NCBI GenBank assembly: GCA_965231055.1
Contig: OZ246411.1
Span: 732,500 to 796,499 of the forward strand
Source of the DNA: an uncultured Candidatus Saccharibacteria bacterium
GTDB lineage: Bacteria; Patescibacteriota; CALEFQ01; G965231055
DNA length: 64,000 nucleotides
Direction of reading: 5' to 3'
This document shows positions 19,903-55,614 of the stretch, piece after piece. Made by a program: the position numbers and the translations under genes. A model generated the notes under the pieces. That model was not told the origin of the DNA, ran no database searches, and worked only from the letters and a program-made list of their open reading frames with translations. Position 1 is the stretch's first letter. Each line of letters begins with the position of its first letter.

Positions 19903-19951
19903 ATATCAGTATTTGAGTATATTAACCCGTTCTTTAAAAAGGAGGTTCGTA

Positions 19952-20547: not shown

Positions 20548-20916
20548 ATGAAAAATTTTCTTATCGGTTTAATTGGTGCATTTGCGATTATTCAAGTTGG
20601 CGCGGCGCTTGACATGATTGGAGAATATGCTAAAGCAATCGAAAAAGACGGAACACTACTTATCATCGCAATTCCTCTCCTGACATGGTATGCGCTCACT
20701 ATTTACTCTTTTTGGTTATTTCCACTTGTACTTCTAAGAAATCCCAACAAAACGAGAATTGCAACATCTTTCGGCTTGAGATTTTCAGCGACTTTTATTG
20801 GACTCTGCATTGCCACAGCTGATGCATTGTTCACCGCAAAACTAAGCGTCATTCAACTTATCTTGCTAATAGTGATTAGCTTGGCAACGATCCTTGTGAA
20901 CCCAGTCAAAACCTAA
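20548..20916 (+). CDS. small multi-pass membrane protein (122 aa), paralog 2
   Basis: AAGGAG RBS; hydrophobic profile and the KTRIATSFGLRFSATFIGLCIA segment parallel paralog 1. Confidence 0.6.
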   Translation: MKNFLIGLIGAFAIIQVGAALDMIGEYAKAIEKDGTLLIIAIPLLTWYALTIYSFWLFPLVLLRNPNKTRIATSFGLRFSATFIGLCIATADALFTAKLSVIQLILLIVISLATILVNPVKT

Positions 20917-35696: not shown

Positions 35697-36122
35697 TTAT
35701 TTCTTTTCCTTAGGTTTTTTGGCTCCATATTTGCTTCTTTGCTGCATTCTTCCATCAACTCCAGCAGTATCTAGAATTCCTCTTACTACATGATATCGAA
35801 CACCTGGTAGATCAGGCACTCTTCCTCCTCGAACCAATACCACGGAGTGTTCCTGCAAATTATGTCCTTCACCTGGAATATATGCGGTTACTTCCATACC
35901 ATTGGTAAGTCTTACCTTTGCTATTTTTCTCAAAGCTGAGTTTGGTTTTTTTGGAGTAGTAGTTTTTACTACAAGACAAACACCGCGCTTGAAAGGATTT
36001 CCTTTGCGTAGTTTTACCGGTTTATTCTTTAACGTGTTGAACTGGGTTTGCAAAGCTGGGGTCCTACTTTTTTTCTTGGGACTCTTTCGGCCTTTGCGGA
36101 CCAGCTGATTCATTGTTGGCAT
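35697..36122 (-). CDS. rpsL: 30S ribosomal protein S12 (about 17-aa insertion after residue 22 relative to E. coli)
   Basis: [11 protein letters not shown] and [12 protein letters not shown] motifs. Confidence 0.95.
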
Positions 36123-36296: not shown

Positions 36297-36776
36297 ATGA
36301 CAAAGAAGGAATACCAAAAGGTTATTGAGGGTATTGTTTCTCCGATTTGGAAAGAAGAGTTCGGAGATCTCAATGAGGCATTTTCTCGTTCAATATCGGA
36401 TGACACCGAAACACCATGTATCGACTGGGGCAAGGATGTCTACATCAATTTTCATCCTGACTTCAGGGGATTCAACATTGATATATTCCAAAACTTCAAA
36501 ATACCCACCGATTGTACGTTCGACAATGGCATAAAAATCATCAACCTTGCACTTACCACAATGGCTATTAAGATTGATTGGATTCGGGTTTGGAAAGAAG
36601 AATTTTGGGACACTGGCTTCAGCATTAACATGCAACCTTTTCAAATTGAAGACTCCAAAAGCTTCACCGCCAATGTCGAGATTCTTGCAATCCAAAACCC
36701 AAGTGCAAAAAAACTATCTTCAGCACTGAAAATCTTATTCGCCATACTGGGATCGTCAAATTGGCCAAAATCATAA
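36297..36776 (+). CDS. hypothetical protein (159 aa), W/F-rich
   Basis: GGAG RBS 7-8 nt upstream; TTGACA-like promoter near 36207; terminator follows. Confidence 0.5.
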   Translation: MTKKEYQKVIEGIVSPIWKEEFGDLNEAFSRSISDDTETPCIDWGKDVYINFHPDFRGFNIDIFQNFKIPTDCTFDNGIKIINLALTTMAIKIDWIRVWKEEFWDTGFSINMQPFQIEDSKSFTANVEILAIQNPSAKKLSSALKILFAILGSSNWPKS

Positions 36777-36834: not shown

Positions 36835-37479
36835 TTAAACTAATTCTTTGCTTTCCAAAAATGTTTTTACTTTCTGAAAAATCAATTTATGTCCTACGGC
36901 ATTGAAATGTACCCCATCCTTATCTAGAACCTTCTCAATTCCAGTTTTTTCGAGCTCTGGCCATATCTCTACAAATTCAACACCCACATTTTCACAAACC
37001 GATTTGGCAATACATCCATATTCCTTCTTGTCTTTGTTACTATATGAGAAATTGGCATCCCAGGAAACTGGATGTGTTTTCAATTCATCCACCATCCCCG
37101 TACCAATAAAAATCACATTTTTAACGAGCTTTTTGGCTTTATCGAGAATCTGCTCAAGATTTAATTTAAAATCCATAGAAGACACTGCGTTGGTATTTTT
37201 ATCTTTTAGAAAAGCTGAGTCATTACTTCCAACTCTAATCAATATAGTCGTCTCATCGTATTTATCATATTTTTATCTAGCTACGGTTTCGCTTTCTATT
37301 CTTTTCAAAACTCCACTAGTGTCATCGCCATCTATCCCGAGATTATAAACTAAAACAAAATAATCCTTACCCTCCATATTTTTCTCGTCAGCAAATTTAC
37401 GAAGTCTTGCGACCCAGCCACCATCAGGATCCCAAGCACCGTAAGTATTGCTATCTCCGAAAATTAAAATTTGAGACAT
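36835..37479 (-). pseudogene. SGNH/GDSL hydrolase interrupted by an in-frame TAA
   Basis: Blocks I GDSNTYG, II GIDGDDTSG, III GSND and V DGVHFN all in one frame; single TAA at 37273..37275 between blocks II and III. Confidence 0.5.
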
Positions 37480-40981: not shown

Positions 40982-41499
40982 GTGTTGCCACTTCCTCCTC
41001 TCACAGGACATTCAAAATAATCAGCAATTTTTATTTCATTAGAAGTCAGCTCCTCAACAGTTTTATCCAAAATCTCTTTGGGATTATCAATAACCCTTTT
41101 TCCTTTTATAAATTTTGCCAACTTCCCTACTTCATATTGAGGTTTGAGCAAAGATAGTATCTCCTCTTCTTTTTTGATCAATTTTAATGCCTCTGGCAAA
41201 ATTTTTATCTGTCTGGTCCACCCCACATCTATCACAATAAGATCAACCTTCTCTGGAAGCTCAACCCTCAACGCATTGGTTCTCTCCATAACCACCACTC
41301 TTTCATCTATTCTAAGTTTATAATCCAAAGAACCATAGGCAGTGTCTACCGCATAAACTTTTTTTGCACCATTTTTTAGCAAAAAATCCGTAAAGCCACC
41401 GACATTGCATCCCAAATCAGCACAAACAAAACCGGAGACATCAATATTCCAATGCTTTATCGCTGCTTCTAATTTTTCTCCGCCCCGAGATACGTACAT
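40948..41499 (-). CDS. tlyA: TlyA/FtsJ-like rRNA 2'-O-methyltransferase without S4 domain
   Basis: SRGGEKLE and DLGCNVGGFTDFLL SAM-binding motif; start placed at MYVSRGG because the upstream 37 codons are translated palindromic repeats. Confidence 0.65.
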   Translation of the reverse strand: MYVSRGGEKLEAAIKHWNIDVSGFVCADLGCNVGGFTDFLLKNGAKKVYAVDTAYGSLDYKLRIDERVVVMERTNALRVELPEKVDLIVIDVGWTRQIKILPEALKLIKKEEEILSLLKPQYEVGKLAKFIKGKRVIDNPKEILDKTVEELTSNEIKIADYFECPVRGGSGNTEYFLRINSRI

Positions 41500-41523
41500 A
41501 GAAAAATTTTCTTTATAATAAGG

Positions 41524-41592
41524 TACGGAACGTATATCTGCGTTCCCAATATATACATCCGAAAGTACGGAACGCACATGTGCGTTCCCAAC
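41524..41592. repeat. two tandem copies of a ~27-nt unit each containing a GGAACG..CGTTCC palindrome
   Basis: ggaacgtatatctgcgttcc at 41527..41546 and perfect 20-bp palindrome ggaacgcacatgtgcgttcc at 41569..41588. Confidence 0.6.
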
Positions 41593-41616
41593 ACCTGCGC
41601 TCCCAACCATTATTAA

Positions 41617-42276
41617 TTAGAATAACGCTGCGGCGAAAATTCCCCAAGGAAAACCAAATAGCCACTCAACAAAAATCACCAAATAAGCAAACCCGTAAGA
41701 AAAAAGATTTCCAGCGAAGAACACAAGCATTAGTAGCACAAAAAATCCATATCTTTCAAAGCCCAACTTAAAAGATGCGAAACGGTCTGGAATCAGAGTA
41801 AAAAGAATTTTTGAACCATCGAGCGGAGGAATCGGAATGAGATTGAATACAGCGAGAGTCAAATTTATAAATATAAGTATCGAGATAAGTATAAATATCG
41901 GCCTGTCTGGTCCTATATTTGCATATTCGTAAACAATCTTAAGCACAATCCCCAAAATAGAAGCCAAAATAATATTGGACAAAGGCCCCGCAACGCTCAC
42001 AATAGCGGGCCCCCATTTTTGTTTTTTGAGATTGTAATAATTTACCGGAACTGGCTTACCCCATCCAAATCCCGCAAGAAAAAGAAGTATTGTACCCGCA
42101 AAATCAAGATGCTTGAGTGGATTTAGTGTAAGTCTGCCTTCGTCTTTGGCTGTATAATCACCCAATTTATATGCAGCAAATGCGTGAGAAAATTCATGAA
42201 TCGTAATAGCCGTAAGTATGGCGATCACCCACATAAGACCACGAAGCGGAGATGTAAATAGTTCTACTATAAGCAT
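41617..42276 (-). CDS. site-2 protease family (M50) membrane metalloprotease
   Basis: HEFSHA HExxH motif in TM helix and LDGSKI motif. Confidence 0.75.
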   Translation of the reverse strand: MLIVELFTSPLRGLMWVIAILTAITIHEFSHAFAAYKLGDYTAKDEGRLTLNPLKHLDFAGTILLFLAGFGWGKPVPVNYYNLKKQKWGPAIVSVAGPLSNIILASILGIVLKIVYEYANIGPDRPIFILISILIFINLTLAVFNLIPIPPLDGSKILFTLIPDRFASFKLGFERYGFFVLLMLVFFAGNLFSYGFAYLVIFVEWLFGFPWGIFAAALF

Positions 42277-42439
42277 TTTATTGTTTTTTATTATTTTATT
42301 CTACCACAATGAAAAGCTAAATCCCAAAAATATGATTCTTCACGATCTCAGGGTACCAAGCATGTAACCAACGCGACTTTAGCTTGTCAAAACTCTTTCC
42401 TTATGATACCCTCTTTGAGTAAATATTTAAAGCAAAAAG

Positions 42440-42610
42440 ATGGCACGAGAATGTACAATGTGCGGAAAAGGAACTCAAGTGGTAAACAACAGACCACATT
42501 CTTTGACGATTACAAAACGTAAACAAAAGGCAAATCTTCAATGGACCACCCATAAAGGAAAAAGAGTTAGAGTCTGTACCGCATGCCTAAAGAAGCTTCA
42601 CACAAAATAG
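42440..42610 (+). CDS. rpmB: 50S ribosomal protein L28 (C4 zinc-ribbon form)
   Basis: 56-aa ORF MARECTMCGKGTQVVNNRPHSLTITKRK...VRVCTACLKK, below the ORF-track length cutoff. Confidence 0.6.
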   Translation: MARECTMCGKGTQVVNNRPHSLTITKRKQKANLQWTTHKGKRVRVCTACLKKLHTK

Positions 42611-42620
42611 ATATACGAAA

Positions 42621-42647
42621 AGAGCGCCATTGGTGCTCTTTTTTTAA
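42621..42647 (+). terminator. rho-independent terminator after rpmB
   Basis: agagcgcc att ggtgctct followed by ttttttt. Confidence 0.6.
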
Positions 42648-42709
42648 TCCCGCAAACGGGTTGCAAATGCTATTTCCGATTAGAACAAGTGGGTGCTCGC
42701 ACGAATAAT

Positions 42710-42841
42710 TCATGGACAAACCATCGAATTATTCAAATATTGAACTCCCTTTGCATTAAGTTTGACCGGAAAAGCAAATTTGTAACCTAACGCTTCGCGG
42801 GACAGCTTAATTGTATCATTATCATCTATGTCGTCAAGCAT
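42710..42841 (-). CDS. putative small protein (43 aa)
   Basis: ATG-initiated ORF MLDDIDDNDTIKLSREALGYKFAFPVKLNAKGVQYLNNSMVCP, located about 60 nt downstream (in gene orientation) of a CTGAAWA heptad array. Confidence 0.25.
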   Translation of the reverse strand: MLDDIDDNDTIKLSREALGYKFAFPVKLNAKGVQYLNNSMVCP

Positions 42842-42900
42842 ACGAGTGTTCAGTTTGCAGTGTTCAAAAGTCACGACTGAAATCAATACTTAGACAAAAC

Positions 42901-42928
42901 GTGAATACTGATTACTGAAAACTAAACA
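42901..42928 (-). promoter_or_regulatory. CTGAAWA heptad-repeat array (4 units) upstream of small ORF 42710..42841
   Basis: gtgaata ctgatta ctgaaaa ctaaaca. Confidence 0.4.
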
Positions 42929-43003
42929 CTTATTCATCCCATTGCAATGAGCTAAAAATATTGCTACAATTCACGGGTGAAATTAATTAATAATCTCAAA
43001 AAT

Positions 43004-43177
43004 ATGTACAAAATAGATAAAAGTAAATGTGCTAAATGTGGGACTTGCCTATCTGCTTGTGCAAGTGAATCCATAAAAACTAATAGCGATGGAAGTTTCG
43101 AAATAGACAATGCCAAGTGCATAGAATGCGGAGCCTGCAAAGCGGTTTGTCCAAACGACGCTATTATCGAAGAATAA
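43004..43177 (+). CDS. 2x[4Fe-4S] ferredoxin
   Basis: CAKCGTCLSAC and CIECGACKAVCP motifs; ATG at 43004 preferred over the upstream GTG at 42977. Confidence 0.75.
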   Translation: MYKIDKSKCAKCGTCLSACASESIKTNSDGSFEIDNAKCIECGACKAVCPNDAIIEE

Positions 43178-43208
43178 TTATTTCAAAAAAAGATAATCAA
43201 AAATCGCT

Positions 43209-43238
43209 CCAAGAAGGAGCGATTTTTTATTAAGAGAG
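43209..43238 (+). terminator. rho-independent terminator after ferredoxin
   Basis: perfect 9-bp stem aatcgctcc / ggagcgatt, 5-nt loop, then ttttatt. Confidence 0.7.
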
Positions 43239-43244
43239 CTGTAA

Positions 43245-43397
43245 TCATGGCTTTTTGCGCATTGCCTCAATTGCCTGTTCGGTATCTTTCAAATACTGAT
43301 CCGCCTTTCCAAAATCTTGTTCCTTAATAGCGAGGCACAAAAGTCCAGCAAGCAGCTTCGCTTTTTTCTGATAATCCTTCTTATTCAACATGATCAT
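43245..43397 (-). CDS. putative small helical protein (50 aa)
   Basis: ORF MIMLNKKDYQKKAKLLAGLLCLAIKEQDFGKADQYLKDTEQAIEAMRKKP between the ferredoxin terminator and ndk; no homology recognised. Confidence 0.25.
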   Translation of the reverse strand: MIMLNKKDYQKKAKLLAGLLCLAIKEQDFGKADQYLKDTEQAIEAMRKKP

Positions 43398-43440
43398 CTC
43401 CTTTTCTTGCTTCAACTCCAAGCAAACGAGCGTTTAGAAC

Positions 43441-44097
43441 TCAACACTTCTTAGCTAGCTTTCCGTAAAGTCCCATTTTTTCGTGCATTTTTGAAGTGTA
43501 ATTAACAACTTCATGTTTATCAAACCAAAGTTCAATTTCTTCTTTGGCTTCATCTACCTCTCCAGAGGCATGAACTAAATTATAAAATGGTCTCTTGTAT
43601 TCGTTGGCCAAATCAGCATTGTCCCAACTAAAATCTCCTCTAATTGTACCTGGCTCTGATAGTGTTGGAACAGTTTTTCCAACTAGCTTGCGTCCTATCA
43701 CCACCGCACCCGGTCCCTCCCAAACCATCGCAACAACTGGACCTGAAGTTAGATATTCTACATTCCATGCTTTTATCATTTTACCTATTTTTATAGGATC
43801 ATCTATTCCTAATCTTTTGATAGGATCTATACCTTTTTGTTTGTATTCATCTAGAGTTCTTCCTCCTGCTTTTTTATACCAAGCATCTGTGCTTGGATAG
43901 TGTCTATGCCCCATATCGTCAGTTGCAGATAGCATTTCCATAGCTACCAATTTCAAACCCACTCGTTCAAAACGAGACATAATTTCTCCTACAAGTCCTC
44001 TTGCCACACCATCATGTTTAACAATTATGAGTGTTTGCTCAAAGCGCCTGGAGGTTTTTTTGCTAGATACTTTTTTGGACATATAATAAGTTTTCAA
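43441..44097 (-). CDS. ndk: nucleoside-diphosphate kinase, long form with ~50-aa insertion
   Basis: LIIVKHDGVARGLVGEI, VAMVWEG, IRGDF and NLVHAS (catalytic His). Confidence 0.8.
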   Translation of the reverse strand: MKTYYMSKKVSSKKTSRRFEQTLIIVKHDGVARGLVGEIMSRFERVGLKLVAMEMLSATDDMGHRHYPSTDAWYKKAGGRTLDEYKQKGIDPIKRLGIDDPIKIGKMIKAWNVEYLTSGPVVAMVWEGPGAVVIGRKLVGKTVPTLSEPGTIRGDFSWDNADLANEYKRPFYNLVHASGEVDEAKEEIELWFDKHEVVNYTSKMHEKMGLYGKLAKKC

Positions 44098-44131
44098 TTA
44101 TTAACAATTGGCTTTCAGAATCATATAAACA

Positions 44132-44166
44132 ATGAATACTGAAAACTGAACGCTGATTACTAAAAG
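44132..44166 (-). promoter_or_regulatory. CTGAAWA heptad-repeat array (5 units) between the two ndk genes
   Basis: atgaata ctgaaaa ctgaacg ctgatta ctaaaag. Confidence 0.45.
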
Positions 44167-44768
44167 AAGGCTTCGTCCATTCTCTCATAATTTTCAAATT
44201 CGGGTTTATTTCCTAGCCATATTTTTATCTCACGCTTTGCTTCGTCTTTTTCACCAGATAGATGAACCAAATTATTCATTGATCTACCCTTAAAAGGAGC
44301 TGACAGCTGTGAATCATGAGAATAATCACCAATGATGGATCCAACATCAGCTGTAATAGGAGTTGTAGTGCCTCTGATTTTTCTCGCAACATTGATAGCA
44401 CCCACACCTTCCCAAACCATTACGATAATTGGTCCAGACATAATATACTCAATAAGTTTTTTTACTACTTCTTTGCCAATTTTTTCAGGATTATTTGTAC
44501 CCAAAGATTTCTTGGCATCTATATTAAATTCTTTGTAAGTAGCAAGCGTTTTTTCGCCGATTTTTTTGATCCACTCGGGGCCATTGTCATAGTGAGCTTT
44601 TACTTTTGCTAGTTCTGGCATCTGCATACGGCAGTACACTAGCTTGAGTCCAACCTGCTCAAAACGTCCTGTGATTTTACCAACCAAACCACGATAAACT
44701 CCATCGGGCTTTATCAGGCAAAGTACTTTTTCGGGTTTTGCTATTTCTGGAATCCTGGGAAATTTCAC
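44160..44768 (-). CDS. ndk: nucleoside-diphosphate kinase paralog, long form
   Basis: LIKPDGVYRGLVGKI, IVMVWEG and NLVHLSGE; the insertion sits at the same position as in the adjacent ndk. Confidence 0.75.
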   Translation of the reverse strand: MKFPRIPEIAKPEKVLCLIKPDGVYRGLVGKITGRFEQVGLKLVYCRMQMPELAKVKAHYDNGPEWIKKIGEKTLATYKEFNIDAKKSLGTNNPEKIGKEVVKKLIEYIMSGPIIVMVWEGVGAINVARKIRGTTTPITADVGSIIGDYSHDSQLSAPFKGRSMNNLVHLSGEKDEAKREIKIWLGNKPEFENYERMDEAFF

Positions 44769-44849
44769 TTTTGTATATTAAATATTATTCTCATATTCTA
44801 CTCTTTTCCTAAGAAATATCAACTGCTAAATCTCTGACATTTCCACACG

Positions 44850-45683
44850 TTATTTGATCAAGATATCTCCTATCTCATCAGTTCGCAAAATCTCTGCGCC
44901 AAAGTTTCCAATACGCTCAAGAACCTCTTTAGCAGGATGCCCATAGCGATTTTCCTCCCCCGCGCTCACCACAACTTTTTCTGGATTCACCGCCTTGATC
45001 CAAGAGTCACTATTTGAATATTTGGATCCGTGATGATTGGCATGCATGATTTTTGCAGACACATCAAGGCCTTTTTCTATGATTTTGTTTTCTGTTTCAG
45101 AGTCAATGTCACCAGACAAAAGTAGAATAGGAGCATTATTGAAATAAACTTTCATCGCAACAGATAAATTGTTTAGATCATCTTCTTTGCTTGCAAATTC
45201 ATCTTCAAAAAAAGGATGCAAAACCAAAAAACTAATACTATTATATTCAAAAGCATCTCCCAAATTTGCCCACTCTATTTCTACATCACTAGATTCCAAA
45301 AGAGCATCAAAAATTTGAGATTCCTCGTTTTTGGCACTATTTTTGCTCATTATCACTTTTTCAACTTCATATTTTTCGAGCACGTCTATTAATCCATTTA
45401 TATGATCAGCGTCTCCGTGAGTTAAAACAACTACCTCCATTGTCTTGTCCCAAAAGGGCATGTATTTTCCTATTTTTGAAAGCACTGCACTATTTGGTCC
45501 TCCATCAACCAGTATCTGAAATTCACCTTCTTGTATTAGCGTTGCGTCTCCCTGCCCCACATCAAAAAAGATTATTTCCGGCGCATCATTTTGCTCGTGC
45601 CTAGAAATTAGAACAAAAAAAGATAACGCGACTACTAGCACAAGCACCGTGGTCAAAATAATTTTGAATTTCGAAATTTCCAT
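44850..45683 (-). CDS. comEC: ComEC/Rec2 C-terminal metallo-beta-lactamase domain protein (own N-terminal TM anchor)
   Basis: HGDADHINGL MBL motif. Confidence 0.7.
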   Translation of the reverse strand: MEISKFKIILTTVLVLVVALSFFVLISRHEQNDAPEIIFFDVGQGDATLIQEGEFQILVDGGPNSAVLSKIGKYMPFWDKTMEVVVLTHGDADHINGLIDVLEKYEVEKVIMSKNSAKNEESQIFDALLESSDVEIEWANLGDAFEYNSISFLVLHPFFEDEFASKEDDLNNLSVAMKVYFNNAPILLLSGDIDSETENKIIEKGLDVSAKIMHANHHGSKYSNSDSWIKAVNPEKVVVSAGEENRYGHPAKEVLERIGNFGAEILRTDEIGDILIK

Positions 45684-47161
45684 TTTTTATTAAACTTTAC
45701 AAAAACTATTATACCGCAGATTAATACTAACCACACAATCAATTGCCAAAATTTCATCTCACCAAAATTCCAAGAACAATATTTTATCTTAGCAAGCCAA
45801 TGCATAATAAATAGCTCAAATCTCACACCAATATCAATGCCCACACCAAGAATCCTTCCAATAAAACTATTAAGAGAAGAAACAAAACCCAAAATAAATC
45901 CAGCAATCATAAAAAAAGGCATAAGTAGCTCCAAAATAAATGTACCCACAAAAGAAACCGCGGAAAAATATCCAAAATAGTAAATAGTGATTGGCAAAGT
46001 CACAATACTTGCAGACATTGTGGCTGAGATCGATTCTCTAAATTCCAAAAACGACGGCAAGAATTTCAGAAAATTTTTAAACAAAGAGGAAAGATAAACT
46101 ATCCCAATAGTAGCAAGAAATGAGAGCTGAAAACCTATGTCTTTAAATAATACTTGGGGATTTAGACCCACCATCAATGCCATCGTAAGTGCCAAAAAAA
46201 TCTCAAAATTTCTTCTTCTACCCAGCATTTGCGCACAAAGCACGATAATTCCCGTAATAGAGGCTCTGGTTACTGACGGAGAAATTCCAGCGAGAAATAT
46301 ATAGATAAAAAGAAATATCACGACAAAAATACATGCGATAGTTCTATTTATAAATCTAAGTGAGCTTAGTATTATTGCAGAGATTATAGAAATATTGATC
46401 CCAGAAATCGCAACCAGATGCAATGTGCCCGTGGATCTAAACTCCTCTATTATATCTTTATCGATATTTGAATACCCTCCAAACAAAACCATTTTAATAA
46501 ATCCTGAAGCAGGCAAATGCATAGATATATCAATTGCCTCACCAAACTTATTTTTCACACCAAAAATAAAATGCAGAAATCCACTCCCTCTTTTCTCCAG
46601 TTTCATATAGGGGCTATACGAAACTGAATAAATTTCTTTGGTGGCTAAATAACCAACGAAGTCAAAATCCTCAGCAAAATTTTGCGGAGAATTGATTTTA
46701 CCTGAAATCAATACTCTATCCTTGTATTCAAACTCTTGGTATCGAGAAGTGTAAACCAAAAGTTTTCCGCTAAACGCTATTTTTTCTTTCGTATCTTTCA
46801 GATCCAAAAAACAATTTTGCATTATTAGCTCTGTGTTTTTTTGTTTAACAAGCGGCTCCAAAGAAATTTCGCAAGAAATACTGAAAGAATCTTTGTCATT
46901 GAGCATGCTTATTGGCACATGCTTTTCATAAAATATAGGAACTATTACCCTAAAAAATGCACATGCAAAAACACAAATAAATATACCGATTATTTTTAGC
47001 TTTGTGTTTCCCAAGAAAACAAAAACAACCGAAACAAAAAAAGCTCCCATAAGAGCCAAAAGAATTCTAAAATCAGATAGATTTTCGGAGAAATAATCAA
47101 ACAATCCGCACGCAAAAGCGAATACCAAAAGACATATCAAAAAAACTATATGCTTCTTCAT
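45653..47161 (-). CDS. comEC: ComEC/Rec2 N-terminal polytopic membrane (competence channel) part
   Basis: 502 aa multi-TM; overlaps the MBL-domain ORF by 31 nt in a different frame. Confidence 0.65.
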   Translation of the reverse strand: MKKHIVFLICLLVFAFACGLFDYFSENLSDFRILLALMGAFFVSVVFVFLGNTKLKIIGIFICVFACAFFRVIVPIFYEKHVPISMLNDKDSFSISCEISLEPLVKQKNTELIMQNCFLDLKDTKEKIAFSGKLLVYTSRYQEFEYKDRVLISGKINSPQNFAEDFDFVGYLATKEIYSVSYSPYMKLEKRGSGFLHFIFGVKNKFGEAIDISMHLPASGFIKMVLFGGYSNIDKDIIEEFRSTGTLHLVAISGINISIISAIILSSLRFINRTIACIFVVIFLFIYIFLAGISPSVTRASITGIIVLCAQMLGRRRNFEIFLALTMALMVGLNPQVLFKDIGFQLSFLATIGIVYLSSLFKNFLKFLPSFLEFRESISATMSASIVTLPITIYYFGYFSAVSFVGTFILELLMPFFMIAGFILGFVSSLNSFIGRILGVGIDIGVRFELFIMHWLAKIKYCSWNFGEMKFWQLIVWLVLICGIIVFVKFNKKWKFRNSKLF

Positions 47162-47186
47162 TGCCCTCCTATTAATAAACCAACAT

Positions 47187-47504
47187 CTATCTAATACCCA
47201 AGGCTTGCTGTTGATTGTTCATTTTTAGTCCAAGATCTTCACCACTCACCCCAAAAATCCTAACCACCTTATCCTTACATTTTTCTCCGTGAATAATTAT
47301 CACGGATGACTTCGCAACATCAAAATATTCTGAAAAAAAACTGATTAATTCTTCATTGGCCTTTCCCCCTTCCGGTATTGCGGATATTTTTACCCTAAGC
47401 TTTCCATTCCAAATATCTTTGACTTCAGATTTTTTTGATCCAGGAATTGCCCGTATCTGCAACTCCACTCCACCTTGTATTTCTTTGAAAAAATTCATAG
47501 ACAT
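47187..47504 (-). CDS. DUF167/YggU-family protein
   Basis: 105 aa, L.V.V.A.P..GKAN.E motif layout. Confidence 0.55.
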   Translation of the reverse strand: MSMNFFKEIQGGVELQIRAIPGSKKSEVKDIWNGKLRVKISAIPEGGKANEELISFFSEYFDVAKSSVIIIHGEKCKDKVVRIFGVSGEDLGLKMNNQQQALGIR

Positions 47505-47508
47505 ATTT

Positions 47509-48042
47509 CTAGTATTCTATTCCTTTTCTTGCTGAAATTCCATCTTCATATGGATGTCTGATGCTATCTACTCTTGATATCAGTTTGGCTTTTTGCATTA
47601 TCTTGGGTGAAGCATCTCTTCCTGTAAGCACCAGCTCCATCTTGTGCGGACGTAAATTCAATAAGCTTTCTATGTCATCTTCATGAAGTAGATTAAACTT
47701 GATCGTATCCAAAAGCTCATCAAGAATCAAAACATCATAATAAGCTTTTTCCAAAATTTCCTTTGCTCTTTGTATGCCCATTTCCGCATAATGAATATCA
47801 TTTAGCGTAGGACCTTTTGGTCCTATGAAGTCTCCTGAGCCATATTGTTCCAAAAGAAATTTATAATCAGGATACACTTCTGCCAATGGTTTAGTTTCAC
47901 CAAATTCCCCGTTTTTCATAAACTGAAGAATAGCCACATTTAGCCCTTGACCCAGTGCTCTTAGCGCTTGACCAAAAGCAGCGGTAGTTTTACCTTTGCC
48001 ATTTCCTATATATATTTGTATTATTCCGCCTTTTGTTTTCAT
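47509..48042 (-). CDS. cobA: ATP:cob(I)alamin adenosyltransferase (CobA/BtuR/CobO type)
   Basis: GNGKGKTTAAFG P-loop; 177 aa from internal Met MKTKGGII. Confidence 0.7.
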   Translation of the reverse strand: MKTKGGIIQIYIGNGKGKTTAAFGQALRALGQGLNVAILQFMKNGEFGETKPLAEVYPDYKFLLEQYGSGDFIGPKGPTLNDIHYAEMGIQRAKEILEKAYYDVLILDELLDTIKFNLLHEDDIESLLNLRPHKMELVLTGRDASPKIMQKAKLISRVDSIRHPYEDGISARKGIEY

Positions 48043-48149
48043 TTTTTTGTCTTGGCTTGAATTAGTATGATACCAAATTTTTTGCAAAAAAAATAGTGTC
48101 TACCGATAAATCGATAGACACCAATGAACAATAGCTGAAACTTGAGATC

Positions 48150-48596
48150 TTATAAGACGAAACTTTTCAATTCCTCCCTGAAACGAGGACACTCGTCGAG
48201 AATCTCACTGAAACTACTCATCAAGAAGGAGTTTCCTTCCTTCTTATAAAAGATCCTGAGATTGCCTTCGCAGGAGATCACGTAGTAGCTGAATTCTCCC
48301 TCGGTGAGATCCTTGGGCTTCAGGAGACGAAAACTGCTCGCGTAGAAAATTTTGGGCTCTTCTTTCTTATGATCCGATAAGTACTCCGCGAAAGAGAAGG
48401 ATTCAATTTGATCAATCTCCTGCCCGTGAATTCTCAGTATGCCTCCAAAGTCCCGGTGTTTGAAATATCGCTTACCTTCTTTTGTTTCGAGGTAGTCCAT
48501 ATTCGAGCACCTGTTCTCATCGGTACTTTTCAGAAAACGAATCAGAGCCGTAACCCAATGGGCCATCTCAACTCCATTACAAACTTTATGAGTCAT
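48150..48596 (-). CDS. hypothetical protein (148 aa) with atypical, higher-GC composition
   Basis: Codon usage visibly richer in GAG/CTC/CGC than neighbours; no recognisable motif. Confidence 0.45.
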   Translation of the reverse strand: MTHKVCNGVEMAHWVTALIRFLKSTDENRCSNMDYLETKEGKRYFKHRDFGGILRIHGQEIDQIESFSFAEYLSDHKKEEPKIFYASSFRLLKPKDLTEGEFSYYVISCEGNLRIFYKKEGNSFLMSSFSEILDECPRFREELKSFVL

Positions 48597-48760
48597 TTCT
48601 CATTCCTCCTTGAAAAATGTTTACGTTCCCACAACACAGTGAAGCCACGCAGAATTATTACTTCTTCGCAGCTTTACTGGGTTGTGGATATGTCAAAGAG
48701 CTAACTAATTACAATTTCGATACTAACATATAAGCCATAAAAAGTCAAGCAAACTACAAT

Positions 48761-48784
48761 AAAACCGCTTATTAAAGCGGTTTT
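48761..48784 (-). terminator. rho-independent terminator after the fused nrdJ
   Basis: 10-bp stem aaaaccgctt / aagcggtttt with 4-nt loop. Confidence 0.6.
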
Positions 48785-48794
48785 ATGTGGGGGT

Positions 48795-48831
48795 GTGGAT
48801 AGATTTTTTATCCACACTTAGAGTATCCACA
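48795..48831. promoter_or_regulatory. cluster of three DnaA-box-like 9-mers (TGTGGATAg, TTATCCACA, gTATCCACA) around the nrdJ stop codon
   Basis: gtgtggata-gatttttta-tccacac inverted repeat plus a third copy inside the last codons. Confidence 0.35.
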
Positions 48832-51800
48832 GCTTCGGCAGATAAGGCATCCTTCGGAAAATTCAACAGTGCCTCCGCATTCTGGACACATAGGATTGTA
48901 TCCCAATTCATTGTTTGTGGTGTAAACTTTTTCTTTCTTTTTTTCTTCAACCACAGTTGGCTTCTCTACTTTTTCAACCTTTGGCATAACTAAATCTAGC
49001 TTGAGTTTGACGCTAGGCTTTTCTTCCTTCTTGAATTCCAGTTTTAGTTTACTTTTTCTTTCTATATATCTCTTGAGTGCTAAAGCTATACCATCAGAGC
49101 AAGAAAAAATCGTTCCGCCTTTTGTCATGATGGGAGAAGGGCATCTCACTCCTTCAAGCTGTTTTACTATTTCATTTGGATCTATTCCTGATCTTAGCGC
49201 TATAGAAATCAGTCTTCCTATTGATTCTGAATATGACGCGGGGCATCCTCCTGATTTTCCAAGCTTCGCGAAAACTTCAAACACACTATTCTCATCCTCA
49301 TTTATAGTTACATGCAAAGGACCACATCCAGTCGTGATGACTTCGGTGGTACCCATGACAACTTCTGGTCTCTCTCTTGGTTCAACTGAACCTATGGAAC
49401 CGATGGTTACTTTTGATTTGTCAGCAGATAAACCACTTCCTCTCACAAGCACCTGTTCATCTTTTGATTTGTCTCTATAAATAGTAATTCCCTTGCATCC
49501 GGTACTGTATGCTAGCATGTAGGCTTTTTTCACTTGGTCCACTGTCGCATCCTCTTTGAAATTTACAGTTTTGGAAACAGCGTTGTCAGTATATTTTTGA
49601 AATGAGGCCTGCATTTTTACATGCCACTCTGGATCGATATCATGAGCAGTCACGAAAATTCTTTTTACTTTTTCGGGAACTTCATCGAGATGCTGAACTC
49701 CCCCCTCTGCCTTTACTTTTTCTATTAATTCTTCTGAATAAAAGCCTTCTTCCTTTGCAATTCTTTCAAACTCAGGATGCATCACGACTTGATTTTCTCC
49801 CCCCATTGAATTTTGCATCGTATAGCTTATGGCAAACAACGGCTCTATCCCAGCTGAACAATCTGCGACTATGCTTATAGATCCCGTTGGAGCAATAGTA
49901 GTCACAGTAGCATTTCGCATCGCATCATATTTGCCATTGAAAGTGCTTTCTTTAAACGCTGGAAAGGATCCTCTTTCTTGTCCTAATTTTTGGGATTCGC
50001 TTCTTGCTACCTTGTTTACAAAACCCATAACAACCTCGGCCATATCCGTAGCTTCTTTGCTGTTATAAGGAATTCCAAGTTTAATAAGCATATCAGCCCA
50101 GCCCATTATTCCTAGTCCAGATTTTCTCGTTCTCTTGGTGGCTGATTCTATTTCGGGAAGCACATATTCATTTGATGAAGTTATGTCATCAAGAAATCTC
50201 ACACCTGTTCTCACTACATCCTCTAATCTTCTCCAATCAATTTTGCCATCTTTAACAAACCTGGAAAGATTGACGCTACCAAGATTACACGACTCATAAG
50301 GAAACAATGGCTGTTCTCCGCATGGATTGGTGGCGGTCATCTTACCTAGCCCCGGCACGGTATTACCTTTTTGAATAGTATCAAGAAAAACAACACCAGG
50401 ATCTCCCGAACCCCAAGCGTGTCTAGAAATAAGATCAAATAAATTAGTTGCGCTTACTTCTTTTACACATGCTTTTGTCCTAGGATCTATGAGTTTAAAA
50501 CTCTTATCATCCCTCACGGCTTCCATAAATTCATTTGTAATGCCCACAGAAAGATTGAGATTTTCAACTTCACCAGGAACATCTTTGCATTTTATAAATG
50601 TTTCAATATCAGGATGATCTATATTTAGTATAGCCATTGCGCCCATTTTTCTACCACCTCTGCCTTTTATAGTTCTCATTGTGGCATTTAACGCTCTTAG
50701 AAATTCAACTGGACCAGCTGCGTTTTCTCCAGTGGAACTTACTTTTGAATAGCTAGATCTTATATCTGAGAGATTGAATCCTGTACCACCTCCACTTCGG
50801 AGTATCTGAATATTGTCTCTTACTGTGTTGAATATATCGTTTATGCTGTCATGCATAGGTAGCACAAAACACTTGGACAAGGTTCTGTTTCGTTGTCCTG
50901 CAAAAATCAAAGTGCCCCCACAAAGAAATTCTAAATTCTTTTGAACTTCTGAAAATTTGTTTTTTATTTTTTTGCACTCTTCGTCGGAGCAAAATTCTTT
51001 TTCAGATCGTCCTACGAAATCAGATATTCTATCAAACAATTCTTCGGGAGTTTCTATTACTTCGCCTTTCTCATTTTTGGCAAGAGCTCGCTTTTCCAAA
51101 ACCTTTATCGCATTTGGAGTAAGCTTTGCTTTTTCTTCTTTTGCACCTTGCTCTTCAGGCTGTTTAATTTCAGATGGTTTCTTCTCTTCTTTTTTAACTC
51201 CCATTATCTGAAATTCTTTGCATCCATCTCTATAAATAGTAATACCCTTACATCCAAGCTCATAGGAAAGCATGAAAGCATCTTTGACTTGGTCTATCGT
51301 GGCGTCATTTGGGAAATTTATAGTTTTAGAAACGGCATTGTCTGTATATTTCTGCGCGTTGGCTTGAATTTTTAGATGCCATTCGTATGAAACGTCATGA
51401 GAAGTTACAAAAACTTTTCTCACTGCCTCAGGTATTTCTTCTAAATCCTTTATACTCCCACGAGAAGCTATTTTCTTCATAAGCTCTTCCGAGTAAAAAC
51501 CTTTTTCTTTGGCAACTTCTTCAAAAACAGGATCAGTGATAACTATTTCTTGGTAACTATCACCCTTGAACAATGCTTTTCTTACAGAAACGAGTGAGAA
51601 CACCGGCTCTATACCAGAAGAACATCCGGCGATAAGACTTATGGATCCAGTTGGCGCAATCGTTGTAAGAGTTGCATTTCTTGGTCTGAAACCCGTATCA
51701 ACAAAAATACTCTCTTCAAAAGCTGGAAAAACTCCACGCTCTTTTGCTAGTTCGCAGGAGCGTTTCATCCCTTCTTCTTTTATGAATTTCATAATCTCAC

Positions 51801-52929
51801 CAGATAGTTTTATAGCCTCATCGCTATTATAAGGAATACCTAGCTTATAAAGCATATGAGAAAATCCCATAATTCCAAGGCCTATCTTTCTCGTTCGCTT
51901 TACATTTTCATCTATTTTTTGAAGCGGGAATTTGTTTTCTTCTATAACATTATCCATAAAATGCACTGCGTCTCTCACAGTATTTCTAAGCATATTCCAA
52001 TCCATCACTCCATCTCTGAAATGATTGGTCAAAACTATTGATCCCAAGTTACATGACTCATAAGGAAGCAATGGCTGCTCTCCGCATGGGTTGGTAGCGT
52101 CTATTTTGCCAAGTTTAGGAGTCGGGTTTGATCTTTGTATTCTATCTAGATAAATAGCTCCTGGATCAGCACACTCCCAAGCTTTTTTCGCTATCAAGTC
52201 AAAAACTTCTCTAGCTTTTATTTTTCTAACAACTTCGTTGTTGTGAGGATTTTTCAGATCGTATTCTTTGTTGTTTTTTACCTTCTCCATGAAATCATCA
52301 GTAATTCCCACAGAAATATTGAAATTTTTTATACTTGATCCGCTGTCTTTTAGTTTGATGAAATCCAAAATATCTGGATGATCCACATTCAAAATTCCCA
52401 TATTACCTCCGTGTCTTTTGCTGCCTTGCAAAATTTGAGATAAAGCCGTATCAAAAGTTTTTAGGTAATGAATGGGACCCGCTGCCACATTTGGAATTCC
52501 CCTAACCGAACTTCCTCTTGGTCTTATCGGTGAAAAATTGAATCCAGTTCCTCCGTTATTTTTTTGTATGACCGCTGCATCTGACAATGCCTGAAAAATA
52601 TCTGTGAGCGAATCAGATAGAGGCACCACAAAACAAGCAGAATATTGTCCATTGTGATTGGTTCCTGCTTCAAGTAGCACGGGGCTATTTGGCAAAAATC
52701 TGAGTTGCGCCATCATCTTATAAAACCTGCGGGCATTCTCATCCACAGCTACGGCATCTTTACCGAATTTTTTATCTGCTTCAGAGATACACTTTGCTAC
52801 TCTCCATAACATTTCATCTGGGGTCTCTAAAATATTACCTTTTTCATCAGTTACTAAATAGCGCTTCTTGATAATTTCAAGAGCTGCTTTTGAAAATTTT
52901 GGTTGTGGTAAATCTTTTGGAACTGTCAT
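48808..52929 (-). CDS. nrdJ: tandem fusion of two class II (adenosylcobalamin-dependent) ribonucleotide reductase NrdJ modules; C-terminal Zn ribbon
   Basis: 1373 aa, uninterrupted; module 1 (51201..52929) and module 2 (48808..51120) each have the Cys-containing S(A/K)CFV, NPCGEQPL, ESCNLGS, PTGSIS and KTVNF motifs; joined by a K/E-rich linker (51121..51200); C-terminus CPECGG..CLICRSCG. Confidence 0.8.
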   Translation of the reverse strand: MTVPKDLPQPKFSKAALEIIKKRYLVTDEKGNILETPDEMLWRVAKCISEADKKFGKDAVAVDENARRFYKMMAQLRFLPNSPVLLEAGTNHNGQYSACFVVPLSDSLTDIFQALSDAAVIQKNNGGTGFNFSPIRPRGSSVRGIPNVAAGPIHYLKTFDTALSQILQGSKRHGGNMGILNVDHPDILDFIKLKDSGSSIKNFNISVGITDDFMEKVKNNKEYDLKNPHNNEVVRKIKAREVFDLIAKKAWECADPGAIYLDRIQRSNPTPKLGKIDATNPCGEQPLLPYESCNLGSIVLTNHFRDGVMDWNMLRNTVRDAVHFMDNVIEENKFPLQKIDENVKRTRKIGLGIMGFSHMLYKLGIPYNSDEAIKLSGEIMKFIKEEGMKRSCELAKERGVFPAFEESIFVDTGFRPRNATLTTIAPTGSISLIAGCSSGIEPVFSLVSVRKALFKGDSYQEIVITDPVFEEVAKEKGFYSEELMKKIASRGSIKDLEEIPEAVRKVFVTSHDVSYEWHLKIQANAQKYTDNAVSKTINFPNDATIDQVKDAFMLSYELGCKGITIYRDGCKEFQIMGVKKEEKKPSEIKQPEEQGAKEEKAKLTPNAIKVLEKRALAKNEKGEVIETPEELFDRISDFVGRSEKEFCSDEECKKIKNKFSEVQKNLEFLCGGTLIFAGQRNRTLSKCFVLPMHDSINDIFNTVRDNIQILRSGGGTGFNLSDIRSSYSKVSSTGENAAGPVEFLRALNATMRTIKGRGGRKMGAMAILNIDHPDIETFIKCKDVPGEVENLNLSVGITNEFMEAVRDDKSFKLIDPRTKACVKEVSATNLFDLISRHAWGSGDPGVVFLDTIQKGNTVPGLGKMTATNPCGEQPLFPYESCNLGSVNLSRFVKDGKIDWRRLEDVVRTGVRFLDDITSSNEYVLPEIESATKRTRKSGLGIMGWADMLIKLGIPYNSKEATDMAEVVMGFVNKVARSESQKLGQERGSFPAFKESTFNGKYDAMRNATVTTIAPTGSISIVADCSAGIEPLFAISYTMQNSMGGENQVVMHPEFERIAKEEGFYSEELIEKVKAEGGVQHLDEVPEKVKRIFVTAHDIDPEWHVKMQASFQKYTDNAVSKTVNFKEDATVDQVKKAYMLAYSTGCKGITIYRDKSKDEQVLVRGSGLSADKSKVTIGSIGSVEPRERPEVVMGTTEVITTGCGPLHVTINEDENSVFEVFAKLGKSGGCPASYSESIGRLISIALRSGIDPNEIVKQLEGVRCPSPIMTKGGTIFSCSDGIALALKRYIERKSKLKLEFKKEEKPSVKLKLDLVMPKVEKVEKPTVVEEKKKEKVYTTNNELGYNPMCPECGGTVEFSEGCLICRSCGYSKCG

Positions 52930-52959
52930 GGAGATATATTAGTTTTAAAAAATAAAATA

Positions 52960-55155
52960 TTATATTTTTAGCTTTCCGCTATCATCAAGATATTTTTGAA
53001 TTGCTCTAGAAATAGCATCTGCACATGAAAGCACCGCACCGTCTTTTGTAAGCAATGGCTTTGAGCATCTGATTCCTCTAAGTTCTTTGAGCAAATCCTT
53101 TGGATCCATTCCACCCCTCAATGCAGTTGAAACCAATCTACTAATTGCTTCTACCTGAGATCCTTCGCATCCTCCGCTTTTACCCATTCTTGCGATAACT
53201 TCTACCATTCCTTTTTCATCTTCACTTATAGTCACGAAAAGTCTTCCACATCCGCTCATCATTTTGTATGTTTTGCCGGTCACTACCTCTGGGCGCTTTC
53301 TGGGTCTCATTGGTTGCTCTATAACTTTGACAGCTATTTTTCCAGATTGAATAGATTGAGAGTCTCCAGATTCTTTTGAGCCACCCTCGCTACCAATATT
53401 TAAGACCTGCTTATCTCTTGATTTATCTCTATATACAGTGACACCCTTGCATTTAAGTTTATAAGCGAGATCGAAAACCCTTCTCACATCCAGAGTAGTT
53501 GCGTCATGTGGCATATTAACTGTCTTGGAAACAGCATTGTCTATATTGTCTTGAAAAGCTGCTTGCATTTTTACATGCCAATCAGGAGAAATATCATGAG
53601 AAGTAACAAAAATTCTCTTAACCTCTTCGGGAATTTCACCAAAATCTTTGATGCTTCCCTTCTTTGCAATTTTTTCAAATAAAAATTCATCATAAAATCC
53701 TTTTTCCTTTGCTACCTGACTAAAAAGTGGGTGCGTTTCTGTCATAGAAAAATCACCCAAATCCAAAATATTTTTTCGGGTAAACGAGATAGCGAAAATA
53801 GGCTCAATACCGGACGAACATCCAGCAATTATGCTTATAGTTCCGGATGGAGCTATTGTAGTGACAGTTGCGTTTCGCATGGCTGGAAATCCTTGCTCTG
53901 ACCAAATACTTTTTTCCATATTTGGGAAAGAACCTCTTTCTTCTCCTATTTTTTCAGACATTCGTCTTCCCTCTTCTGATATAAATTTCATCACTCTCTG
54001 CGCAGTAGCTATTCCTTCTTCGCTGTTATATGGAATACCAAGGGCCATAAGCATATCTGCAAATCCCATCACGCCTAGACCAATTTTCCTGTTCGCCTTG
54101 GTTGCTGTATCTATTTTGGTTATGGGAAAATTATTTACATCTATAACATTGTCAAGAAAACGCACAGCGGATCTAACCACGCGACCAAGCTTTTTAAAAT
54201 CAATTGAAACCTTACCTTTGTCATCCATAATCATTCGCGAAAGATTTATGGAACCCAAGTTACATGATTCATAGGGCAACAATGGTTGCTCTCCGCAAAC
54301 ATTGGTTGATTCTATTTTGCCAACACCTGGAGTAGTATTTTTATTGTTAATTTCGTCTATAAATACTATTCCGGGTTCTGCGTTTTTCCACGCCATCTCC
54401 ACAATAAGTCCATAAACATCATTGGCTCTCAGAGTCTTTACGGCATTTTTGGTATGGGGATCAATAAGCTCATATTCCCTATCGTTTTTCACGGCTTCCA
54501 TAAACTTTTCCGTAACTGCTACTGACACATTGAAATTATTAAGTTCTCTTGGATCGTCTTTGACAGTAATAAAATCCAAAATATCAGGATGATCCACTCT
54601 CAAAATTCCCATGATGGCACCTCTTCTAGCGCTTGCCTCATTTATTGTGTTTGTTGAGTTATTAAAAAGTTTCATGAAAGAGATAGGACCAGTTGATCCT
54701 TTTTTTGTAGTTGAGATTATAGATCCTTTGGGACGTAGCTTTGAAAAATCAGATCCGCTTCCGCCACCAGATTTGTGCACCAAAGCAGTTTCGCGCATTG
54801 CTTCAAAAATAGATTCCATAGAATCATCTACGGGTATCACATAGCATCCTGAAAGCTGACCCATCTTGCTTCCTGCATTCATCAAGGTTGGAGAGTTTGG
54901 TAAAAAGTCCAAAGAAGCCATAAGATCATAGAACTCTTGCTTGGTGTTTTTGACTTCTTGTTCCGATGCTCCATATCTGGCATCTGCTTGCGCCACAAAA
55001 GAAGCCACCCTATCAAACATTTCTTCAGCCGTTTCCGTAACCTCTCCACTAGAATTTCTTTGTAAAATTCTTTTTTTCAATACTTCCTCTGCATTTTTTG
55101 ATAGTGTCAATTTCATTTTTTTATTTACTGCGAATCTTTTAAAGGTTATTCGCAA
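52960..55155 (-). CDS. nrdJ: class II (adenosylcobalamin-dependent) ribonucleotide reductase NrdJ, stand-alone
   Basis: 731 aa; LSGCYVIPV, NVCGEQPLLPYESCNLGS, APSGTISI; C-terminal TGCG..GKSGGC subdomain present. Confidence 0.85.
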   Translation of the reverse strand: MRITFKRFAVNKKMKLTLSKNAEEVLKKRILQRNSSGEVTETAEEMFDRVASFVAQADARYGASEQEVKNTKQEFYDLMASLDFLPNSPTLMNAGSKMGQLSGCYVIPVDDSMESIFEAMRETALVHKSGGGSGSDFSKLRPKGSIISTTKKGSTGPISFMKLFNNSTNTINEASARRGAIMGILRVDHPDILDFITVKDDPRELNNFNVSVAVTEKFMEAVKNDREYELIDPHTKNAVKTLRANDVYGLIVEMAWKNAEPGIVFIDEINNKNTTPGVGKIESTNVCGEQPLLPYESCNLGSINLSRMIMDDKGKVSIDFKKLGRVVRSAVRFLDNVIDVNNFPITKIDTATKANRKIGLGVMGFADMLMALGIPYNSEEGIATAQRVMKFISEEGRRMSEKIGEERGSFPNMEKSIWSEQGFPAMRNATVTTIAPSGTISIIAGCSSGIEPIFAISFTRKNILDLGDFSMTETHPLFSQVAKEKGFYDEFLFEKIAKKGSIKDFGEIPEEVKRIFVTSHDISPDWHVKMQAAFQDNIDNAVSKTVNMPHDATTLDVRRVFDLAYKLKCKGVTVYRDKSRDKQVLNIGSEGGSKESGDSQSIQSGKIAVKVIEQPMRPRKRPEVVTGKTYKMMSGCGRLFVTISEDEKGMVEVIARMGKSGGCEGSQVEAISRLVSTALRGGMDPKDLLKELRGIRCSKPLLTKDGAVLSCADAISRAIQKYLDDSGKLKI

Positions 55156-55170
55156 AATATTAATTTATAA

Positions 55171-55614
55171 TTAAAGTTCTAAAATAGTTTTTTGAAAATC
55201 TTCGGGGGAAGAAAAACGATCAAAAACAGATTTAAATCTTATGAAAGCAATTAGATCGAATTTCTGAAGATGCTTAAGCACAATCGATCCGATGTCTTTG
55301 CTATAAATCTCGCCTTCGGAAAAAGCCAATATTTCCTGCTCTATTCCATCAATCAATGAATTGATTTCTTCCTCGCTTCTTCCTCGCTTTGCGCATGCAT
55401 AATTTATAGCTTTGTATAATTTTTCACGATTATACATTTCTTTTTTACCGTTTCGTTTTCGCACCTCAAGTTTTTTCAATTCTATTCGCTCAACCGTCGT
55501 GTATCTTCTTTTGCAGCTCTCACACTCACGCCTTCTTCTAATAGAAATTCCATCCTCTGATATTCGAGAATCTACCACCCTAGTCTCTTTGTATCCGCAT
55601 ATTGGACAATTCAA
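55171..55614 (-). CDS. nrdR: transcriptional repressor NrdR (Zn ribbon + ATP cone)
   Basis: MNCPICGYKETRVVDSR...CESCKRRYTT. Confidence 0.9.
   Translation of the reverse strand: MNCPICGYKETRVVDSRISEDGISIRRRRECESCKRRYTTVERIELKKLEVRKRNGKKEMYNREKLYKAINYACAKRGRSEEEINSLIDGIEQEILAFSEGEIYSKDIGSIVLKHLQKFDLIAFIRFKSVFDRFSSPEDFQKTILEL

Follow-up and report, generated by a model that had tools for sequence, protein, structure and literature searches.

The closest described counterparts of the locus reported here are the CobA/CobO/BtuR family of ATP:cob(I)alamin adenosyltransferases, represented by Salmonella CobA and E. coli BtuR, and the operons of class II (NrdJ) ribonucleotide reductases (RNRs) with an NrdR regulator. 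From work on Salmonella, CobA itself is known to release inorganic triphosphate. Here we describe a stretch of 64,000 nucleotides (the window) from an uncultured Candidatus Saccharibacteria bacterium (contig OZ246411.1, positions 732,500 to 796,499), in which a cobA gene follows an nrdR–nrdJ cluster and is separated from it by ORF148, an open reading frame (ORF) of 148 codons with foreign codon usage. As in known class II operons, nrdR is followed by nrdJ genes, and all NrdJ modules pass the models for B12-dependent RNRs. In contrast to these operons, the window codes for three NrdJ modules, two of them fused, and continues with cobA and two ndk genes. The encoded CobA shares with its family a full-length profile match, a Walker-type P-loop and the typical length of 177 residues, but it sits in the nrdR–nrdJ cluster and not in a cob/cbi/btu operon.

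With a probability of about 0.65, we read this locus as a conserved cobA–nrdJ cluster into which a strain-variable accessory gene, ORF148, has been exchanged by recombination, with no part in RNR or B12 chemistry. The elements on which this reading depends are the following.

48043–48807, minus strand: lineage-specific insert of 765 bp from the nrdJ stop to the cobA start, carrying the ORF148 unit (delimited by the break of homology to the related loci L003 and L005)
48759–48786, minus strand: hairpin resembling an intrinsic terminator, behind the fused nrdJ (stem of 12 bp, 4-nt loop, T-rich tail)
48720–48748, minus strand: sigma-70-like promoter candidate for ORF148, TTGACT-17 nt-TAGTAT with TG before the second hexamer (9 of 12 consensus positions)
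48629–48687, minus strand: 59-nt imperfect hairpin in the presumed 5' untranslated region (UTR) of ORF148, at the upstream edge of the divergent cassette (found in minimum-free-energy (MFE) and centroid structures)
48605–48610, minus strand: Shine–Dalgarno sequence AGGAGG, 8 nt before the ATG at 48596 (read from the sequence)
48150–48596, minus strand: ORF148, orphan protein gene, 148 aa, with foreign codon usage (GC content at third codon positions, codon adaptation, one homologue)
48094–48123, minus strand: intrinsic terminator after ORF148, where the divergent cassette ends downstream (stem of 13 bp, 4-nt loop, eight T in a row)
48067–48075, minus strand: extended -10-like element TGGTATCAT upstream of cobA, putative promoter (read from the sequence)
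47509–48042, minus strand: cobA/btuR, ATP:cob(I)alamin adenosyltransferase, 177 aa (PF02572, CobA_CobO_BtuR; frame open to a TTG at 48087)

Composition and divergence of the ORF148 cassette

Composition was compared across 70 ORFs of the window, using an index similar to the codon adaptation index (CAI) that was built on the window's long genes. ORF148 is the strongest compositional outlier among these 70 ORFs, mainly at the codon level. Its GC content is the highest of the set (0.434 vs a mean of 0.374, sd 0.023, z = +2.6) and is reached by about 2% of 447-nt windows. The GC content at third codon positions (GC3) deviates more strongly (0.544 vs 0.303, sd 0.053, z = +4.5), with normal values at the first and second positions, and the CAI-like index is the lowest of all (0.489 vs 0.700, sd 0.046, z = -4.6). 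A preliminary description of this DNA had called the ORF GC-richer than its surroundings; both GC3 and CAI indeed place it well outside the normal variance from gene to gene.

When 1.84 billion protein representatives were searched exhaustively with phmmer, a single homologue of ORF148 emerged, the protein P0002 (139 aa, 41% identity, E = 4.8e-20). Its gene lies on L002, a Logan contig of 2.3 kb, in the order nrdJ C-terminus, ORF139, cobA, DUF167, comEC. This contig comes from a sister strain of the window organism, and the sole homologue occurs in the same context as ORF148 and not in an unrelated one. DNA identity between the window and L002 changes abruptly along the locus:

nrdJ C-terminus: 89%
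nrdJ stop through hairpin (48807–48628): 91%
hairpin to ATG: 67%
ORF148: 51%
stop codon to terminator stem: 60%
T-run to cobA ATG: 93%
cobA: 91%
DUF167: 92%
comEC N-terminus: 87%

The four flanking genes differ between the two strains by 0.31–0.54 synonymous (dS) and 0.015–0.10 non-synonymous (dN) substitutions per site (Nei–Gojobori), and CobA is 97% identical at the amino acid level with a dN/dS of 0.027. By the same method, the proportion of synonymous differences (pS) between the two ORF148 alleles is 0.82, which is saturated, and dN is 0.53. Since the non-coding parts of the cassette are only 60–67% identical, vs 91–93% just outside, the whole segment and not just the protein must have a different history. 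The non-coding bases are as diverged as ORF148 and the borders are sharp; therefore, the entire segment of 530 bp coalesces much deeper than its flanks. This pattern points to homologous recombination with a divergent allele rather than to protein evolution in place. ORF148 would then have come from, or be exchanged with, a GC-richer gene pool, with presumed breakpoints at the 5' hairpin and at the ORF148 terminator.

Could ORF148 instead be an old resident of this site that diverged in place, because it evolved very fast or was locally hypermutated? Homology between the two alleles is clear, they lie at exactly the same position, and their ribosome-binding site (RBS) and terminator are homologous as well; small orphan genes often evolve fast, and we found neither a donor lineage nor the signature of a mobile element. 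Nevertheless, we consider this account unlikely, given the saturated synonymous sites of ORF148 against the moderate dS of its neighbours. Selection on the protein cannot produce non-coding bases that differ at 33–40% of positions inside the cassette vs 7–9% just outside, with sharp borders. Furthermore, GC3 is foreign in both alleles (in L002, 0.464 vs 0.31–0.38 in its own flanks), ORF148 is missing from L005 and L003, and neither a reverse transcriptase nor any other mutator element was seen among the scanned neighbours.

The two more distant loci, L003 and L005, were found with CobA homologues as anchors. Their CobA proteins are 70% (L003) and 52% (L005) identical to that of the window. In L005 the order is nrdR, nrdJ, fused nrdJ and cobA, then comEC, a metallo-beta-lactamase (MBL) gene, a glycosyltransferase gene, ndk and ndk; here, the fused nrdJ and cobA are 78 bp apart, with no insert. 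L003 has 3.4 kb at the same place, containing four ORFs that code for 88 aa, 142 aa (with a signal-peptide-like N-terminus), 144 aa (with a hydrophobic N-terminus) and a 619-aa S8 peptidase. These four show no relationship to ORF148. Homology of both loci to the window stops near 48792–48804, at the nrdJ stop, and resumes near 48049, at the cobA start. The order nrdJ, fused nrdJ, cobA is kept in the window, L002, L003 and L005, and this synteny agrees with the earlier proposal that cobA and nrdJ form a coherent unit. The nrdJ–cobA linkage is thus an ancestral, conserved feature of this small lineage, and the junction between the two genes a permissive, variable spot with different cargo in different branches.

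Within the L003 insertion, the part nearest nrdJ (6061–6853) has a GC content of 58% vs a background of 47%. Its two ORFs, on the minus strand (88 and 142 aa), have GC3 values of 0.63–0.69 and no recorded Pfam family. The same junction is therefore occupied by GC-rich foreign DNA in a second lineage.

GC3 in L003 and L005 is about 0.45–0.6, which makes a GC-richer relative a plausible, though unproven, source of ORF148. No integrase, transposase, tRNA gene or direct repeat was seen near the ORF148 unit. The preliminary description had named ORF148 as a candidate for horizontal acquisition. This suggestion is strengthened by the foreign GC3 and CAI, by the absence of the gene from L005 and its replacement in L003, and by two alleles that are far more diverged than their flanks.

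ORF148 as a gene and its predicted expression signals

ORF148 is a genuine gene, and its product is a soluble alpha+beta protein of about 17 kDa. The frame is uninterrupted from end to end in both alleles, which align with gaps of whole codons. The Shine–Dalgarno stretch AGGAGGAATGA is kept in L002. The stem of the ORF148 terminator differs at paired positions between the two strains but still pairs in each (GTGTCTATCGAT/ATCGGTAGACAC in the window vs GTGCCTATTGGT/ATCCATAGGCAC in L002). Taken together with the conserved RBS, the unbroken frames and the gaps that span full codons, the re-pairing of the terminator indicates a functional, homologous unit.

Searches for further relatives were negative throughout. 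ORF148 has no match in Pfam (E up to 1), NCBIfam, PHROG, PADLOC or the sequences of the PDB, just as the first reading of the sequence had seen no recognizable motif. A word-index search of 5.8 billion clusters retrieved only ORF148 itself, and a profile built from both alleles found no further member. No homologue was detected in viral contigs, in JGI metagenome contigs (by peptide pattern) or in phage and plasmid records (by tblastn). One further phmmer match, P0003 (3983 aa), rests on a repeat of 22 residues for which P0002 has no conserved counterpart, and we treated it as a chance match. An internal duplication within ORF148 is not supported either (hhalign E = 0.2; Smith–Waterman score within the range of shuffled sequences).

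A GC-rich patch in an AT-rich genome can also mark the gene for a structured RNA. ORF148 belongs to no known family, and its single-sequence AlphaFold2 (AF2) model reaches a mean predicted local distance difference test (pLDDT) score of only 37. We find it hardly credible, however, that this ORF is a decaying remnant or a structured non-coding RNA instead of a functional protein gene. The excess of GC is restricted to the third codon position of the ORF148 frame, and this link to the frame speaks for a gene that is translated and has foreign codon usage. Although their DNA has diverged by about 50%, both alleles keep that frame intact, the alleles are recognized as homologous at the protein level, and a strong RBS is conserved between them. 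At gathering score, the window has no match to any Rfam family (best E = 0.12 within 47900–49000), and with the two sequences combined the pLDDT rises to 73. A cobalamin riboswitch in the GC-rich stretch or in the 5' UTR was also considered and discarded, as no cobalamin family of Rfam matched within 47900–49000 at E up to 10.

Both edges of the unit carry predicted signals. The hairpin at 48759–48786 forms in both the MFE and the centroid structure and recurs in L002, and the promoter candidate that follows it falls within the intergenic stretch that is 91% identical there. The region of the 59-nt hairpin folds with z = -5.4 relative to shuffled sequences, and the 50-nt window 48683–48634, which covers most of it, is 98% identical in L002. 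The window has a single copy of this hairpin, and neither L003 and L005 nor the other loci have one; an exact 30-mer from it had no match in metagenome contigs. The extended -10-like element upstream of cobA is unchanged in L002, within a stretch (48043–48095) that is 93% identical, although a simple promoter scan did not report it. Since terminators lie on both sides and the gene has a promoter-like site of its own, the ORF148 unit looks monocistronic and insulated from nrdJ and cobA.

The attC sites of integrons have the core sequences RYYYAAC and GTTRRRY. The 59-nt hairpin upstream of ORF148 ends in CCACAAC/GTTGTGG, which fits these cores only in AAC/GTT. The hairpin at the 3' side is the 30-nt terminator, comparable hairpins were not found elsewhere, and no integrase is encoded among the scanned neighbours. 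An integron gene cassette was rejected on these grounds.

CobA and the surrounding genes

The ORF at 47509–48087 on the minus strand matches PF02572 with E = 1.7e-53 and 181.8 bits (cut-off 25.7) over profile positions 3–172 of 172. Its translation contains IYIGNGKGKTTAAFG and a P-loop of the GxxGKT type, GNGKGKT (GNGKGKTTAAFG). Judged by its sequence, this protein is a bona fide CobA/BtuR-type ATP:corrinoid adenosyltransferase, in agreement with its first assignment. The nearest homologues are 177 aa long; therefore, the true start of cobA is probably the ATG at 48042, and the listed TTG at 48087 lies too early. Identity to any homologue outside its own small lineage is at most 48%, and the next relative, at 48%, lies in the context of a spore-former, where nrdJ is missing. 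Given the chemistry known for this family, CobA would adenosylate a salvaged corrinoid and so provide adenosylcobalamin for the three NrdJ modules. The preliminary description had placed cobA two genes from the triple nrdJ locus, but ORF148 is the only ORF between them. It had also seen no other B12 genes in the window; this holds for 26 nearby or outlier proteins, none of which has a B12-related domain in Pfam, the remainder of the window being outside that scan.

Every gene between 44 and 56 kb lies on the minus strand. In the 5' to 3' direction, the cluster reads nrdR, nrdJ, fused nrdJ–nrdJ, ORF148, cobA, DUF167/YggU, comEC, an MBL-fold gene, ndk and ndk. Pfam matches at the locus are CobA_CobO_BtuR, DUF167, Competence/ComEC, NrdR and NDK. 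In addition to the genes given above, the cluster comprises:

55171–55614, minus strand: nrdR, coding for the repressor, at the head of the deoxynucleotide cluster (Pfam Zn_ribbon_NrdR, E = 2.4e-19; ATP-cone, E = 9.1e-15)
52960–55155, minus strand: nrdJ, single-module B12-dependent class II RNR, 731 aa (NCBIfam NF006417, 1050.6 bits; TIGR02504 NrdJ_Z, 686.6 bits)
48808–52929, minus strand: fused double nrdJ, two RNR modules in 1373 aa (NF006417, 1810.7 bits in two stretches; TIGR02504, 1301 bits in two stretches)
47187–47504, minus strand: DUF167/YggU-family gene directly after cobA (PF02594, E = 8.9e-23)

Relative to the NCBIfam cut-offs for B12-dependent RNRs (961 bits for NF006417, 400 for TIGR02504), all three NrdJ modules score above threshold. 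The triple-NrdJ arrangement is kept in L003 and L005, and nrdR has the same position in L005 as in the window. The fusion is also kept, at 1394 aa in L003 (1864–6048) and 1351 aa in L005 (5867–9922). Two full NrdJ modules in one protein of about 1370 aa beside a separate third nrdJ are thus common to three lineages. The DUF167 gene has the same place in L002; in L005, comEC directly follows cobA, and no DUF167 gene was called between them. Positions 41187–53504 of the window are matched at 100% identity by a Logan contig from SRR10912416. The organism's protein is carried by a contig of 843,892 bp, which fits the small genome assumed earlier. A literature search for cobA adjoining nrdJ in the candidate phyla radiation (CPR)/Patescibacteria returned nothing relevant.

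Downstream of the nrd–cobA cluster lie two tandem ndk genes (43441–44097 and 44160–44768, minus strand), each of which matches the NDK profile in two stretches. The pair is also present in L005 (14157–15383), where a dCMP deaminase gene lies upstream of nrdR. Together, the ndk pair, the dCMP deaminase and the nrd–cobA genes look like an extended supercluster for deoxynucleotide synthesis.

Further irregularities were seen elsewhere in the window. The genes adk and secY are usually adjacent at the end of a ribosomal-protein operon. Here, two small hydrophobic, membrane-like ORFs without Pfam match (19913–20365 and 20548–20916, plus strand; 150 and 122 aa) lie between adk (19102–19764) and secY (20989–22266), on the opposite strand, and may be another small insertion. 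The first of the two has a raised GC3 of 0.424 and the third-lowest CAI of the window (0.579). The second-lowest CAI (0.568, with GC3 0.438) belongs to a 159-aa ORF without Pfam match at 36297–36776 (plus strand), which adjoins a gene at 35697–36122 that resembles ribosomal protein S12 (rpsL) by sequence. This ORF is unrelated to ORF148 (hhalign probability 0.2%) and may be a further foreign orphan gene or a spurious ORF. A GDSL-family lipase/acylhydrolase gene is apparently split into an N-terminal piece of 68 aa with FGDS (37273–37479, minus strand) and a C-terminal piece of 135 aa (36835–37242, minus strand) that matches positions 69–178 of the Pfam profile Lipase_GDSL_2; this split could reflect a frameshift or a pseudogene. 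In the 64-kb window, ARAGORN detected no tRNA or tmRNA and no Rfam family matched at gathering score, despite a large ribosomal-protein region.

Possible functions and comparison with known systems

Structure prediction for the 148-aa protein, which had been proposed as a check, gave a model of pLDDT 73 and a predicted template modelling score (pTM) of 0.67 with the two-allele alignment. This model, which rests on two sequences, consists of a helix, four strands, a helix, four strands and two helices. A Foldseek search with it returned no match at E < 0.001. Among the weak, non-significant structural matches, CYTH/triphosphate tunnel metalloenzyme (TTM) structures recur. This recurrence is intriguing because adenosyltransferases release inorganic triphosphate, as documented for the human enzyme (PMC8633584).

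A functional tie of ORF148 to cobA and nrdJ, either as a divergent CYTH/TTM-like protein that binds or hydrolyses triphosphate or as a handler of corrinoids or RNRs, would agree with this by-product, with the layout of the AF2 model and with the location of both known alleles directly upstream of cobA. We regard such a tie as very improbable. The hallmark of CYTH proteins is an N-terminal ExExK motif (PMC8233210), which is absent from both alleles, and Pfam CYTH is not matched even at E up to 1. L005 keeps nrdJ and cobA together without ORF148, L003 has unrelated genes at this place, terminators bracket ORF148, and the fold model draws on only two sequences. Likewise, the roles suggested for ORF148 at first (redoxin, chaperone or corrinoid handler) find no supporting sequence or structure match, and they sit poorly with its own promoter-like site, its terminators and the L005 cluster that lacks it. 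A more specific version, in which ORF148 would found an extremely narrow family with a TTM-like fold and would partner CobA by binding or hydrolysing its triphosphate by-product, is a long shot. If true, ORF148 would add a so far undescribed accessory step to B12 activation, in a small-genome bacterium whose entire synthesis of deoxynucleotides depends on adenosylcobalamin.

ORF148 is thus most likely a strain-variable accessory protein outside RNR and B12 chemistry, exchanged into a conserved cobA–nrdJ cluster. Several points weigh against this interpretation. ORF148 is kept at the same spot beside cobA in two strains, as a functional link would predict, and its description as an accessory unrelated to B12 or RNR rests on its dispensability in L005 and on negative searches. 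Only two alleles are available, so that the exchange may have been either a replacement of the cassette or a homogenization of the flanks, and no donor was found. The ORF148 promoter and the extended -10 element of cobA are consensus matches only. As to the cluster, CobA falls below the NCBIfam equivalog cut-offs (TIGR00708, 146.7 bits vs 167.75; NF004637, 159.9 vs 185); it is a divergent but clear family member, and its assignment at the family level stands. Finally, one window is too little to check for corrinoid salvage or for a lack of de novo synthesis.

The linkage of cobA to nrdJ across three lineages supports a picture in which the deoxynucleotides of a small-genome bacterium depend on the activation of a scavenged corrinoid. 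This part can help annotation and predictions of nutritional dependence, and it represents expected biology. The ORF148 family has two known members among about 15 billion proteins, and its site suggests that foreign or strain-specific genes are swapped at a junction even where a small genome keeps a housekeeping cluster tightly conserved. The general significance is limited unless ORF148 acts on the chemistry of CobA or NrdJ.

In comparison with described systems, ORF148 resembles the CYTH/TTM proteins in its similar size and in two predicted halves of a helix plus four strands each. Unlike these proteins it has no ExExK motif and no match to Pfam CYTH (PF01928), and its structural scores are below significance; hence, it should not be filed as a member. 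A second comparison is with strain-variable genomic islets. The ORF148 unit differs from these in being very small (one gene, 765 bp) and in having two alleles that are homologous to each other instead of unrelated cargo. With them it shares atypical codon usage, a junction that varies among relatives both in content and in whether genes are present at all, sharp borders and putative expression signals of its own.

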